The notes under the pieces: generated by a model
The model's input: only the letters and a program-made list of their open reading frames with translations
Told to the model about the DNA's origin: nothing
Database searches by the model: none
Shown: positions 22,667 through 27,356 of the stretch, one piece after another
Layout of the letters: the number at the start of each line of letters is the position of its first letter
Numbering within the stretch: position 1 is the first letter of the stretch
Translations under genes and position numbers: made by a program
Virus record (IMG/VR): IMGVR_UViG_2917398303_000004
Coordinates: 1-40,414 of that record
Reading direction: 5' to 3' (one strand)
Source: a virus
Taxonomy: Duplodnaviria; Heunggongvirae; Uroviricota; Caudoviricetes
Length of the DNA stretch: 40,414 bases

Positions 22667-22792
22667 GTGCGTTTCCTTTTAGACGTGAGCCTGTCGCACG
22701 GTAACGCCGCCCGAGAGGTAAACGCAACCTAACGGCATTACCCAGGCTCACTACTGAAAGACTCTCTTTGATGTGCGCGTGCGATGCGCATT

Positions 22793-22819
22793 AAAAAAGC
22801 CCCGCTATTGCGAGGCTAT
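22793..22819 (-). terminator. Rho-independent terminator, copy 2 of a 27-bp perfect repeat
   Basis: AAAAAAGCCCCGCTATTGCGAGGCTAT on + strand; hairpin plus T6 on minus strand; identical to 24161-24187. Confidence 0.55.
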
Positions 22820-22836
22820 TTGTTAAGGGGACTTGC

Positions 22837-23091
22837 TTAGTTAATGCTTAAAATTTCCACAGCTTGTCTTATTTGCCTTGAATCTAGGTCTTCAATATCA
22901 GTAGCCACCAAATAGAAGGATGATTCGCCAGTAAGGGATGTAACGTTAGCTGTAATAATCTCTAATTCAACCTCAGTATCATCGGAAAGCATCCAGTTGA
23001 TAGAGCTAAGTCCATCACCTACGTTGATAACCTCAGGTTTTTTACCCTTAAGAATTAAAATGACACTTTTCATATAATTTCTCTGTTCCAT
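22837..23091 (-). CDS. Hypothetical protein (AT-rich)
   Basis: 84-aa ORF inside repeat-bounded cassette. Confidence 0.45.
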   Translation of the reverse strand: MEQRNYMKSVILILKGKKPEVINVGDGLSSINWMLSDDTEVELEIITANVTSLTGESSFYLVATDIEDLDSRQIRQAVEILSIN

Positions 23092-23141
23092 GACACTTCA
23101 AAACATTATCACAGGCACTCATTAAATGCCTGCTGTAATGC

Positions 23142-23375
23142 TTAATCGTCGAGTTGAAGAACGCCGTGTTCCTCTGACTCTGAGTAGGCGATTAAACCTT
23201 CATATGCCGGAACAATTTCGCCACTTTCTGATTCAAACTCAGGGATGGTTGAGCGGGCGATGGTATAGAAAGGCTGGCCTTCCTGCTCTGCAAATTCTGC
23301 AAGGGATTTGATCTGCTCTGCTGTCAGAACTAATGCTGTCATTGCTTTATCCTTTAGAGGGTATATCGATTGCAT
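23142..23375 (-). CDS. Hypothetical acidic protein
   Basis: 77-aa ORF inside repeat-bounded cassette. Confidence 0.45.
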   Translation of the reverse strand: MQSIYPLKDKAMTALVLTAEQIKSLAEFAEQEGQPFYTIARSTIPEFESESGEIVPAYEGLIAYSESEEHGVLQLDD

Positions 23376-23437
23376 TATCCGCTTACGGGGATAATCATTA
23401 TCAAGCCCACCAGCAGATGAGCTTTGTAATGGTCAAA

Positions 23438-25468: not shown

Positions 25469-25864
25469 TCACTTGTTACCATTGCCGGTCCCTCCACCAC
25501 GTAAACGCGAGAGAATTCCAAACAGGCTACCCAAATCCTGGCTGTTGACGAAAGTCAACAGCTTAATAGCAATTGCGGCAACGATTACCGCGCCCAGCGC
25601 ATCAAGTGGTCTGTCGCTATACCCCGTCCATTTGGAGAAGAAGGAGCCAAGCAGTGGCGCGCCAATAACGCCGAAGATGAATGAGGTGATGAAGTAGCCA
25701 GTCAGCTTAAGGCGGCTGATATTAACCGCCGTAGCGACGTAGAATACCGCGCCAGCGAATGCGCCAAACACAACACCATAATCAATACCGGTTGCGATAC
25801 CAAAAACACTGGCTCCCATAAGGCCACCAGCGGCAACCGTAGTGCCAGAAACAGGATCGGACAT
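25469..25864 (-). CDS. Multi-TM membrane protein, putative holin
   Basis: 131 aa, 3-4 predicted hydrophobic helices, first gene of lysis block. Confidence 0.45.
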   Translation of the reverse strand: MSDPVSGTTVAAGGLMGASVFGIATGIDYGVVFGAFAGAVFYVATAVNISRLKLTGYFITSFIFGVIGAPLLGSFFSKWTGYSDRPLDALGAVIVAAIAIKLLTFVNSQDLGSLFGILSRLRGGGTGNGNK

Positions 25865-25948
25865 TTAGCCCCCTCTTATTGCCGTGAGTCCTCTCAAAAC
25901 GAGGGGAATAAAAAAGGCCGCCTTCAGGCAGCCTTCTAGTGAAAATAA

Positions 25949-26626
25949 TTATTGTCTCAATTTAACTCGCTTCCATTCTGTTTTTAAGCATCTTTGACTC
26001 GATTTAATATATAGTTCTTTTAGTCTTCGGTATGCTTTTTCCACCTCTGAACCATCTACATAAAACATACGGATATCTTCGTTCTCGAACATAAAGATCA
26101 TGTTTTTCTGACACGTCAGTATAGCTTTTGATGTCCATTCATGGGGATTTAGCATTAGCTGTATATTGGTAGCCAACTCAAGTATACGATGCTCAGAATC
26201 AATCACCACATCAAAGTATTCGTCTGCTCTCTCATTCGTGCCATTGCCCCATTTAGCACCTTCTCTTTCAGCAGAGTGCATTCGACGAAAACGCTTATGC
26301 TTTTCACAGCTCATAATGAACTCTGAGCAGTAACTTCGAAGGGTATTAATCCATTGTTGTCTATTTGTAGACAACACCTGAGAATCAAAAGCCATTTCAG
26401 CTAAATGACGTTGATTATCTCTGTCTGTTGCGGCTAAATCATCATTCTTTTTGATTGTGTACCATGCCACAGCAGTTGGCAGTGCTGCACCTACAAAAGC
26501 AGCAAGTACAGATCCAAAAATGGTATCCCAACCAATTCCGGTATCAACAATAATCTCAGGTATTTTTGTAACTGCTAATCCAGCATCTACAGTGAAAAGT
26601 GGATAAGGTATCCCTTGCCAAGCCAT
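25949..26626 (-). CDS. Hypothetical membrane-anchored protein (AT-rich moron between Q/tR' and lysis genes)
   Basis: 225 aa, single N-terminal TM helix, low GC relative to flanks; no recognisable domain. Confidence 0.55.
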   Translation of the reverse strand: MAWQGIPYPLFTVDAGLAVTKIPEIIVDTGIGWDTIFGSVLAAFVGAALPTAVAWYTIKKNDDLAATDRDNQRHLAEMAFDSQVLSTNRQQWINTLRSYCSEFIMSCEKHKRFRRMHSAEREGAKWGNGTNERADEYFDVVIDSEHRILELATNIQLMLNPHEWTSKAILTCQKNMIFMFENEDIRMFYVDGSEVEKAYRRLKELYIKSSQRCLKTEWKRVKLRQ

Positions 26627-26661
26627 ATAACCCCCCTAAACATTTTGTGGGGGGATAATAG

Positions 26662-26684
26662 CAAAAAACCCGCACGTTGGCGGG
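26662..26684 (-). terminator. tR'-like rho-independent terminator downstream of Q (CCCGCCAACGTGCGGG + T6 on minus strand)
   Basis: 5-bp GC stem, 6-nt loop, T-run; about 50 nt downstream of candidate pR'. Confidence 0.6.
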
Positions 26685-26733
26685 TTCTTAATGTTTGTTG
26701 CTCTGTTCGCTTTTGCGTCCCGAGCGTAACATA

Positions 26734-26762
26734 ATTTAAGCACCTTCTGGCTCACATTGCAA
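26734..26762 (-). promoter_or_regulatory. Candidate late promoter pR' (TTGCAA-17-TTAAAT) overlapping Q stop codon
   Basis: Sigma70-like -35/-10 with 17-bp spacer on minus strand, directly upstream of the tR'-like terminator. Confidence 0.4.
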
Positions 26763-27356
26763 CTTAAATCTGCTGCTATTTGTGCCGAATGCATCACACA
26801 TTGGTGCATAAAGCATGAATTCTGCCAAACTTAGCCAAGAATCAATTCTGCGGCGGCAGGTCATGTAGCACCACTCTGGATGACGCTTTTGAAGTTGCTC
26901 TGCCATGAAGCGTTTGCTCTTGCGATAGCGGTATCGGTCCAGTAGCACATCAAACAATCCGTTATGACCATTTGAGATCAGCACAGCCGCGATAACGCCA
27001 TCAATGCATACACCCTCATCATCTGAGCAGAACGCAATGCCTGTCTTGTTTTTGCCATCGAGAATTTCACGGAAGAACGCTTCGAGTTCTGGTTTCGACA
27101 GCCCTGATTTCTTCATGCGACGTAAAGCGTCATTGATGGCTGTCTTGGTGATTTTCCCGGAGGCCAACAACTGGTTAAACATATTGCCGCCTGAGCCGCC
27201 ACCTATGAATGACCAGCGGCCCCACATACGTAGTTTGCCCTGAATCCATACACTTTCCAGTGTACGCAGTCGTGCCATTTCCCCGGATTTGCCAACTTCG
27301 GAAGGATTAATCATTTTGCGTCTCCACTTACGCCAGTACACCGGTTGCCAGCGCAT
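26736..27356 (-). CDS. Late-gene antiterminator Q-like protein
   Basis: Position immediately upstream of pR'/tR' and lysis genes; size and Cys/His content compatible with Q family; no motif confirmed. Confidence 0.5.
   Translation of the reverse strand: MRWQPVYWRKWRRKMINPSEVGKSGEMARLRTLESVWIQGKLRMWGRWSFIGGGSGGNMFNQLLASGKITKTAINDALRRMKKSGLSKPELEAFFREILDGKNKTGIAFCSDDEGVCIDGVIAAVLISNGHNGLFDVLLDRYRYRKSKRFMAEQLQKRHPEWCYMTCRRRIDSWLSLAEFMLYAPMCDAFGTNSSRFKLQCEPEGA

Follow-up and report, generated by a model that had tools for sequence, protein, structure and literature searches.

A low-GC inner-membrane protein gene between antiterminator Q and the lysis genes of a prophage: a possible self-insulated moron with predicted expression in the lysogen

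Introduction

When is an accessory gene expressed that lies directly downstream of the Q-dependent late promoter of a prophage, and what may its product do? The question is raised by an open reading frame (ORF) located at positions 25949-26626 of IMG/VR record IMGVR_UViG_2917398303_000004 (Caudoviricetes), the whole 40,414-nt stretch of which was analysed and is referred to here as the window. An earlier inspection of the letters alone (the sequence-only reading) had placed this ORF in the slot where Stx phages carry stx and had considered it a candidate defence, exclusion or virulence factor expressed or released upon induction. In phage genomics, an autonomous unit composed of promoter, gene and terminator is called a moron, as defined by Juhala and Hendrix, with bor and lom of lambda as examples. 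The explanation favoured here, to which we assign a probability of roughly 45%, is that the ORF belongs to such a unit, an autonomous and doubly insulated moron of about 785 bp lodged between the Q/pR' module and lysis cassette of a lambdoid prophage, expressed in the lysogen and fulfilling an exclusion or defence role at the inner membrane. The elements on which this explanation leans are as follows, SD denoting the Shine-Dalgarno sequence.

25949..26626, minus strand: the ORF, 225 amino acids (aa), ATG start, taken from the open-reading-frame listing
26655..26663, minus strand: extended -10 promoter-like element TGCTATTAT, predicted start near A26648
26622..26662, minus strand: fold-back hairpin, in which anti-SD CCCCCC (26654-26649) and GCUAU pair with SD GGGGGG (26636-26631) and AUGGC, containing the start codon
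26686-26667 with T run to 26663, minus strand: terminator tR', AACCCGC-CAACGT-GCGGGTT followed by a T run, about 40 nt 3' of pR'
25910..25936, minus strand: downstream terminator AAGGCTGCC-TGAA-GGCGGCCTT followed by a T run, just after the ORF stop and 46 nt before the holin ATG

The ORF is a real gene since dN/dS (the ratio of nonsynonymous to synonymous substitution rates) calculated against close homologs falls to 0.06-0.14. Its SD lies 4 nt 5' of the ATG, and its protein is identical to WP_135491520.1 of Escherichia sp. E4694, the 90% protein cluster encompassing Escherichia including E. coli, Klebsiella, Raoultella, Enterobacter, Citrobacter and Hafnia. The low GC content noticed earlier was confirmed, being 0.391 in the ORF versus 0.513 in its flanks in the window, and the same sign of difference was found in 43 of 43 loci of the family. 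Neither Pfam, NCBIfam nor PADLOC gave a match for the protein, which bears out the impression that no domain is recognisable; its sole PHROG match, phrog_18859 (function unknown), is confined to residues 1-74.

Results

A conserved promoter-like element precedes the gene

Alignment of the 60 nt located 5' of ATG in 44 family loci revealed the conserved motif TGnTAnnAT, represented by TGCTATTAT in the window and by TGCTATAAT in L023 (numbers with L denote individual loci). Scored as TGnTAnnnT at a distance of 18-40 nt before ATG, it was found in 31 of the 44 loci as compared to 1.5% of random positions, and in most loci the -10 element lies 22-29 nt 5' of ATG. The T, G, T, A and T of the element are invariant in the leader alignment, which are the very positions by which an extended -10 promoter is defined, and a purine is present 6-8 nt 3' of the -10 hexamer, at the expected start site. 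The element is kept also in loci devoid of the upstream terminator or of Q (L028, L036, L040-L042, L055 and L074). The cassette probably carries its own promoter, as far as such signals allow judging, and from them we infer both its activity and the start site in the window.

A fold-back hairpin covaries with the ribosome-binding site

Directly 3' of the -10 element, a run rich in pyrimidines can pair with the SD, and its sequence varies by locus. The anti-SD/SD pairs encountered among the loci are CCCCCC/GGGGGG, CTCCTT/AGGAG, TTTCCTTTT/AAGGAAA, GCACC/GGTG and CATTACCTT/AAGGTAATG, the last representing the different stem with which a sister allele of E. coli L3Cip3 retains the module. With stems differing in register from locus to locus, RNAalifold found no pairs in the MAFFT alignment of leaders and was replaced by two other tests, one comparing cognate and chimeric halves of the stem and the other estimating the energy required to open the ribosome-binding site (RBS). 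Cognate halves fold at -8.9 kcal/mol versus -5.5 kcal/mol for inter-locus chimeras (31 loci, permutation p<5e-5), so covariation of the two arms is observed in silico. The opening cost was defined as the free energy required to release positions -14 to +3 from pairing, the RNA with its own start beginning 7 nt after the hexamer. It amounts to 11.2 kcal/mol in the read-through RNA versus 4.9 kcal/mol in the own-start RNA, being higher in the former for 25 of 26 loci (p=6e-8), and in the window these values are 16.9 and, from the predicted internal start, 1.85 kcal/mol. Shuffling of the 15-nt segment between the -10 element and the start lowered the read-through cost to 6.8 kcal/mol (24 of 26 loci, p=2e-7), and the native cost of the window was reached by none of its 30 shuffles. 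The mean unpaired probability of SD/AUG gave a modest contrast of 0.43 vs 0.34, and opening energy was the measure relied on. For the window, the read-through RNA folds into the leader hairpin, the terminator and the SD/AUG hairpin with a minimum free energy (MFE) of -48 kcal/mol (z=-4.5), and hardly any structure forms in RNA initiated at the predicted internal start.

Transcripts starting at the cassette promoter lack the 5' arm of the hairpin, which overlaps the -10/discriminator segment. Only the read-through, i.e. Q-dependent, RNA should thus be masked, and on the Q-antiterminated transcript the ORF is predicted to be not translatable, its SD and AUG being paired. Stx-like expression on induction, as expected in the sequence-only reading, is hard to reconcile with an extended -10 element of its own, with a terminator before the holin gene and with a hairpin occluding SD/AUG in upstream-derived transcripts. 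That reading had correctly recognised pR'-tR' upstream of the ORF, but the second terminator just 3' of it, the internal promoter-like element and the RBS hairpin had been overlooked.

Proposed mode of expression

In the lysogen, transcripts initiated at pR' would end at the terminator 26686-26663, and the extended -10 element TGCTATTAT just 3' of tR' would start a short-leader mRNA near 26648, in which SD and AUG would be free and the 225-aa protein could be made. The terminator 25936-25910 would shield the holin gene, and hence the cell, from transcription of the cassette. Upon induction, Q-modified polymerase would pass both terminators, and in the resulting read-through RNA the -10/discriminator segment would pair with the SD and the start codon, so that translation of the ORF would be largely masked. 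The product is expected to be a single-pass inner-membrane protein with a periplasmic tail of 33 aa and a cytoplasmic bundle, for which exclusion of, or defence against, other phages at the inner membrane, exerted from the prophage, would be the likeliest role. Judged by these signals, the gene is probably expressed in the dormant prophage rather than at induction. If so, the fold-back would stop the phage from over-producing the protein during its own lytic growth.

The cassette is mobile and its slot is polymorphic

The surroundings of the gene were surveyed in 76 IMG/VR loci (the neighbour counts are also given for 72), taking on the upstream side the closest gene coding for 90 aa or more and labelling it by Pfam. 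The upstream neighbours included 27 Q proteins belonging to three families (PF03589, 17; PF06530, 9; PF06323, 1), five of which also match DUF1133, and among the nearest downstream neighbours there were about 21 holins from six Pfam families, plus lysozymes. Per-locus labelling revealed that this position preference, the placement between Q and holin, is limited to the subfamily that has the conserved tail, members further removed from it adjoining integrases, methylases or P2 tail genes. A homolog is the gene directly after Q in prophages of Klebsiella, Pectobacterium and Yersinia and in phage LLS, the latter being the sole match of the ORF protein in the search of phage records.

The hairpin AACCCGCC-N6-GCGGGTTTTTT on the upstream side is also present in family loci whose Q proteins belong to different families; it therefore travels with the cassette, serving as tR', and at the other end a terminator is found within 130 nt from the stop codon in 34 of 43 family loci. 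Phages mEp390 and SaltyDalty as well as Klebsiella phages possess the same holin cassette at 84-91% nucleotide identity without the ORF, their homology to the window beginning at about 25934, inside the downstream terminator. Conversely, locus L016, from an otherwise unrelated phage having a PF03589-type Q and a lambda-S-type holin, is 87% identical to the window at the nucleotide level solely over 26692-25908. As delimited by these alignments, the mobile unit is the segment of about 785 bp at 26692-25908 and consists of terminator, leader, ORF and terminator. In L023 and L024, nucleotide identity to the window is 87-91% as far as codon 7 and 79% beginning with the downstream terminator, and the encoded protein is only 32% identical. 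Since such deeply diverged alleles reside in near-identical backbones, the slot is a polymorphic locus filled by their exchange.

The sister allele mentioned above lies in E. coli L3Cip3 (L115, NZ_CP062211.1, 3001-3651) within the same backbone of DUF968, DUF1133-type Q and holin genes and codes for a 190-aa protein (MWLGIPF..., phrog_18859-like), in which the tail and the transmembrane (TM) helix are kept and the three motifs of the bundle described below are gone; its gene is preceded by the same module of terminator, TGTTATCAT and RBS hairpin. Among 5,426 complete E. coli genomes, just 7 contain the leader/promoter module, and a homolog of the ORF stays intact in a decayed E. coli prophage surrounded by pseudogenes. 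In Yersinia intermedia (L011, 4868-5587), Q and the family member are separated by an oppositely oriented gene of the Abi_alpha (abortive infection) family, by which the slot appears to collect defence-type genes. Several cargo genes are stacked in the slot of Pectobacterium carotovorum (L006, 7097-7972), where an Endonuclease_NS gene and further small ORFs come between the family member and the lysis genes. Altogether, an Abi_alpha gene, a nuclease and a methylase are encountered as other occupants of the slot elsewhere.

With respect to its anatomy, the locus exhibits an extra gene between modules, deviant base composition, its own promoter (in silico) and its own terminator, i.e. the traits by which morons are recognised. 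The earlier notion of a foreign, low-GC accessory cassette of a single gene in the Q-holin slot gains support. The gene is furthermore prophage-borne, stand-alone, membrane-located in its product and polymorphic between related prophages, as is typical of the exclusion/abortive class.

The protein is predicted to combine a single membrane helix with a generic helical bundle

Three parts are distinguished in the protein.

aa 1-33: N-terminal tail with net negative charge, from sequence
aa ~34-58, coding 26453..26527, minus strand: TM helix followed by KK, from a Kyte-Doolittle scan of close homologs and the AlphaFold2 helix starting at residue 36
aa ~80-222: four-helix bundle with motifs NRQxWINxLR, LNPxE and LKxEWKRVK, from alignments and the AlphaFold2 model

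The hydropathy scan and the modelled helix confirm the single N-terminal TM segment proposed earlier, and since the product is predicted to be an integral inner-membrane protein, its release on induction is not to be expected. The predicted topology is N-out/C-in, with the tail in the periplasm and the bundle in the cytoplasm, because KK follows the TM helix and the N-terminal tail is net negative (positive-inside rule); minimal relatives begin at the TM helix itself, followed by K/R. The AlphaFold2 model, built with 21 homologs, has a mean pLDDT (the per-residue confidence score) of 77, exceeding 90 across most of residues ~90-220, and shows the TM segment continuing as a long helix that leads into an antiparallel four-helix bundle; the tail is unmodelled. 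Judging by the helix register of this model, the three motifs would be positioned at the membrane-proximal end of the bundle, and their conserved residues (R, W, N, E, K) seem to resemble bundle-closing or interfacial residues, not a catalytic site. In the close family, the tail, the TM helix and the three motifs average 63-72% identity, and residues 101-154 and 167-210 are just 29-31% identical; the bundle has a conserved membrane-proximal base and hypervariable distal two thirds. Within an allele lineage, omega equals 0.03-0.08 for the conserved and 0.13-0.23 for the variable parts, indicating purifying selection in both.

Remote-homology and structure searches, suggested together with the sequence-only reading, yielded only a generic four-helix-bundle resemblance. 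The profile search of PDB sequences returned nothing below E=0.19. Ligand-binding domains of the 4HB_MCP type (PcaY, Tsr, Tar, TorS, NarX) are similar at 5-9% identity with Foldseek E-values never better than 0.07, and this likeness is a generic fold resemblance because de novo designed bundles score equally well. The ORF protein and its relatives have no match to Pfam 4HB_MCP, and in contrast to these sensors the protein has one TM helix only, a bundle predicted to be cytoplasmic rather than periplasmic, and no output domain; lacking a profile match and not being placed periplasmically between two TM helices, it was excluded from this class. A HEPN domain, suggested by the helical bundle with a conserved Arg, was rejected as no Rx4-6H motif and no conserved His occur in the alignments.

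The protein belongs to a large unannotated superfamily

A word-seeded search disclosed just 24 close clusters, the profile of which, run against 1.84 billion representatives, retrieved 2,090 proteins at E<=1e-3 and 399 at E<=1e-10; the resulting number of about 2,090 superfamily clusters is counted at 50% identity. Nearly all members contain one N-terminal TM helix (sometimes two), a bundle of ~130 aa and three motifs.

Helix 1, superfamily: motif NRQxWINxLR
Turn between helices 2 and 3, superfamily: motif LNPxE
Extreme C-terminus, superfamily: motif LKxEWxRVK

Members come from Bacteroidota, Delta- and Alphaproteobacteria, Nitrospirales, NC10, Planctomycetota and others. The superfamily combining TM helix and bundle is unannotated and has no Pfam family: testing 52 distant members against Pfam and PADLOC gave no consistent family, the PADLOC matches being scattered, weak and discordant between members, and 19 of the 52 match phrog_19998 (function unknown). 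In a sister group (phrog_18859-like), the tail and the TM helix are kept and the three motifs lost. Scanning genome contigs with a profile of the narrow alignment gave 23 loci, and none of 50,697 phage records was hit when a minimal family member served as tblastn query. The neighbours of the superfamily loci examined are heterogeneous, with no conserved partner gene among them.

Two names attached to relatives were followed up. The designation "XpaC / 5-bromo-4-chloroindolyl phosphate hydrolase" of an Erwinia homolog was not reproduced by hmmscan. P0177 from Pseudomonas graminis (A0A6M8MDF5) is called "DUF4760 domain-containing protein" in UniProt, in conflict with the Pfam-A model, as hmmscan against DUF4760 (PF15956) matched neither P0177 (even at E<=10) nor the ORF protein nor the 52 relatives; the likeness is limited to the UniProt name of one distant relative, and DUF4760 itself has no known function. 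Literature searches on the accession, the PHROG identifiers, DUF4760 or a membrane protein in the Q slot found nothing relevant.

Neighbouring genes and transcription signals

The immediate surroundings of the cassette comprise the following features.

26736..27356, minus strand: Q antiterminator gene, Pfam DUF1133 (1e-96) and Phage_antitermQ (9.5e-9), phrog_753 "anti-termination protein Q-like" (1e-70)
26733..26762, minus strand: candidate pR', TTGCAA-N18-TAAATT (or N17-TTAAAT), overlapping the Q stop codon, read from sequence
26663..26727, minus strand: short leader RNA ending in tR', with the terminator hairpin present in the MFE structure
25469..25864, minus strand: holin gene, Pfam Phage_holin_8 (2e-37), phrog_198 holin

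The Q gene, the pR'-like promoter and the intrinsic terminator upstream confirm that the ORF is the first gene after a Q-dependent late promoter and terminator. We infer that TTGCAA-N18-TAAATT acts as pR' with transcription starting at about 26727; the TTGC..GTGCTTAAATTGTG block is kept in other loci with a DUF1133-type Q. Downstream of the ORF, the Phage_holin_8 holin gene is followed by a second holin-like gene, a GH19 endolysin gene and spanin-like ORFs.

The pR'-tR' leader (26664-26739, minus strand) gave a weak match to the Salmonella small RNA isrJ in Rfam, 23.3 bits vs a gathering score of 37 with E=0.018 for a 201-nt search, and no Rfam family exceeded its gathering score. Short terminated RNAs from late promoters of this Q type may be related to isrJ-like small RNAs. 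In six IMG/VR loci (L029, L030, L032, L044, L048 and L054), TTGCAA-N17-TAAATT followed by TGACGTTAACGATGGGC is situated ~60-130 nt 5' of the family gene, an arrangement which we take to resemble closely pR' of lambda with its pause-inducing element. In the same six loci, the cassette terminator comes within ~45 nt and the leader is far shorter than lambda 6S RNA. A second low-GC patch (0.39-0.42) was noticed in the window at 22750-23400 (minus strand). Flanked by the spanin/antirepressor-like genes and by the terminase region, it contains two small ORFs, 22837-23091 (84 aa) and 23142-23375 (77 aa), and may be another accessory insertion.

Discussion

Weighing of the explanations

Placement of the ORF as the first gene 3' of pR'/tR' suggests another possibility, namely that it lacks a functional promoter of its own and is transcribed, like stx, exclusively from pR' by Q-modified polymerase, the hairpin tuning translation or demanding an activator as in the Gifsy-1 isrK-orf45-anrP region. 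The nearly invariable occurrence of the subfamily in the Q-holin slot might stem from a requirement for late expression, inactive read-through mRNA right after Q has a precedent in Gifsy-1 (PMC4825925), and in leaders of the CATGTATGTT subgroup the hairpin may sit within any transcript. Such induction cargo nevertheless looks unlikely, as TGnTAnnAT retains the critical extended -10 positions even without upstream Q or terminator, the 5' arm of the hairpin overlaps the -10/discriminator and is hence outside transcripts starting there, and a strong terminator before the holin is needed only under independent transcription. The same moron architecture and lysogen-type expression signals fit a lysogenic-conversion factor unrelated to defence, i.e. 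a prophage inner-membrane protein that alters host envelope physiology (stress tolerance, colonisation or another fitness trait), and in favour of it are the absence of any matching defence model and the spread of the superfamily across many phyla, often beside housekeeping genes and without phage context. We regard this option as improbable too: deeply diverged alleles are swapped within near-identical phage backbones, defence-like genes such as Abi_alpha neighbour the slot, both patterns are more typical of conflict genes between genetic elements, and nothing known points to a specific host process.

The position of the ORF immediately 5' of the holin gene, the membrane anchor of its protein and the predominance of holins among downstream neighbours would suit a lysis accessory, whether antiholin, lysis-timing regulator or safety device against leaky holin in lysogens. 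This is the least credible of the alternatives, considering that mEp390, SaltyDalty and Klebsiella phages dispense with the ORF while having the same holin cassette, that one allele (87% nucleotide identity) stands beside holin_8 in the window and beside the lambda-S-type holin in L016, that six holin families are found downstream, and that the hairpin would cut synthesis at the very time of lysis protein production; the protein matches none of the lysis families in PHROG or Pfam, whereas its neighbours match holin_8, holin_3_7 and GH19. Homology to a routine lysis or structural protein, raised earlier as a check, was not detected among these families; such a routine role is unlikely, since the holin cassette also exists without the ORF and one allele adjoins differing holin and Q families. 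Three layers of insulation against outside transcription, together with a single TM helix and an oligomerisation-prone helical bundle, which would resemble many membrane-disrupting effectors, might rather point to a toxic membrane protein (an addiction or abortive "suicide" module) with terminators and RBS hairpin serving mainly to prevent lethal over-expression. That, too, is highly improbable: no antitoxin-like partner or antisense RNA signal was seen at the loci, the gene is stably kept in a decayed prophage, and its predicted own mRNA with an open RBS and a good promoter-like element gives no hint of toxicity at native level. Tail assembly interference (Tai) was considered and dropped, being located differently, upstream of packaging genes, with no link to the ORF.

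Several points weigh against a lysogen-expressed moron with a defence role. All regulatory claims were made in silico from sequence, and the family loci share ancestry, so that the counts are non-independent. In the leaders containing CATGTATGTT (L018, L022, L038, L045, L047, L053 and L056), the assignment of the -10 element is ambiguous, and in this subgroup the hairpin could belong to the gene's own mRNA; the AT-rich gene could moreover be silenced by H-NS in the lysogen. As to defence, the ORF protein had no match in PADLOC-DB v2 at E<=10 and its relatives were likewise inconsistent, the distant relatives in other phyla adjoin housekeeping genes, the test for positive selection on the variable parts was negative (omega 0.13-0.23), and the fold is a generic four-helix bundle without a diagnostic site.

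With both sides considered, phage exclusion or defence is our best guess on the function, drawn from sequence features, and we rank it above late cargo and conversion factor, and these above a lysis accessory or a tightly controlled toxic protein. A broader view, which we hold to be doubtful, is that the superfamily represents a widespread new class of single-gene inner-membrane anti-phage (exclusion/abortive) proteins, whose conserved tail, TM helix and base would target the membrane or DNA entry, with specificity coming from the hypervariable tip, enterobacterial lambdoid prophages carrying the gene as a self-insulating cassette with the terminator as tR' and fold-back silencing on the late transcript. 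The superfamily is common in prophages and many bacterial phyla, and a phenotype for one member would provide annotation for thousands of "hypothetical proteins". If the promoter and the fold-back hold, an accessory gene located at the most strongly transcribed late position would yet be expressed in the lysogen only, and cargo of the stx slot could not be presumed induction-dependent. Short, self-contained and polymorphic in near-identical prophages, the ~785-bp cassette makes allele swaps and phage challenge straightforward, and the locus is a well-defined, easily tested lead, not a demonstrated new mechanism.

Comparison with known systems

Lactococcal proteins of the Sie2009 type are small prophage inner-membrane exclusion proteins that act alone. 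SieA of P22 is another small exclusion protein of the prophage, active alone at the inner membrane (PMC10883804). The ORF protein, a candidate for the exclusion role, is likewise small, prophage-encoded, located in the inner membrane and stand-alone, while differing in that no homology to SieA or Sie2009 was detected and that its variable part is predicted to be cytoplasmic.

Regarding the slot, stx is described as co-transcribed with the late genes under Q antitermination (PMC8065619, PMC7547250), and PR' is described as constitutively active and terminated during lysogeny (PMC7547250). The ORF shares with stx and other Q-to-S cargo the location 3' of pR'/tR' and 5' of the lysis genes as well as foreign composition. 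Unlike stx, it has a promoter-like element and a terminator of its own, its read-through RNA is predicted to be masked, and it codes for a predicted integral membrane protein instead of a secreted toxin. In the antQ-isrK-orf45-anrP-isrJ region of Gifsy-1, the read-through mRNA after antQ/isrK is translationally inactive until a short RNA acts in trans (PMC4825925). A short terminated RNA directly after a Q-like antiterminator followed by genes with inactive read-through mRNA is common to both, and the leader described here has the weak isrJ-like match; the distinction is that in Gifsy-1 the short RNA relieves the block in trans, descriptions include no internal promoter and the encoded proteins (orf45, antirepressor-like) are unrelated.

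The translational side has its closest counterpart in IS10/Tn10, where fold-back reportedly inhibits translation of transposase on externally initiated transcripts, a finding said to be that of Davis, Simons and Kleckner in 1985. As in IS10, a sequence 5' of the own start is complementary to the RBS, so that only outside transcripts form the occluding hairpin and the gene would be protected from external promoters. Unlike IS10, the element described here is a phage moron; it comes together with an intrinsic terminator on its 5' side, and outside transcription originates from a defined phage late promoter subject to antitermination.

Among morons, HK97 gp15 is described as an inner-membrane superinfection-exclusion moron (Cumby et al. 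2012, PMC3430355). The cassette is akin to gp15 and to lambda bor/lom in having a promoter, one gene and a terminator, in lower GC content, in its location between conserved modules, in predicted prophage expression and in coding for a small inner-membrane protein. It departs from gp15, Bor and Lom in showing no sequence or specific fold similarity to them and in occupying the Q-holin slot, not the tail region. To our knowledge, no moron is known with a terminator doubling as tR' and an RBS hairpin against read-through, and literature searches found no published description of the superfamily or of the terminator-promoter-foldback insulation. Morons and cargo of the Q-S slot are already well known as such; what appears new is this protein superfamily and the way of insulation, by which the cassette, as distinct from HK97 gp15 and lambda bor/lom, brings along an upstream terminator doubling as tR' and a hairpin predicted to mask the RBS against read-through.

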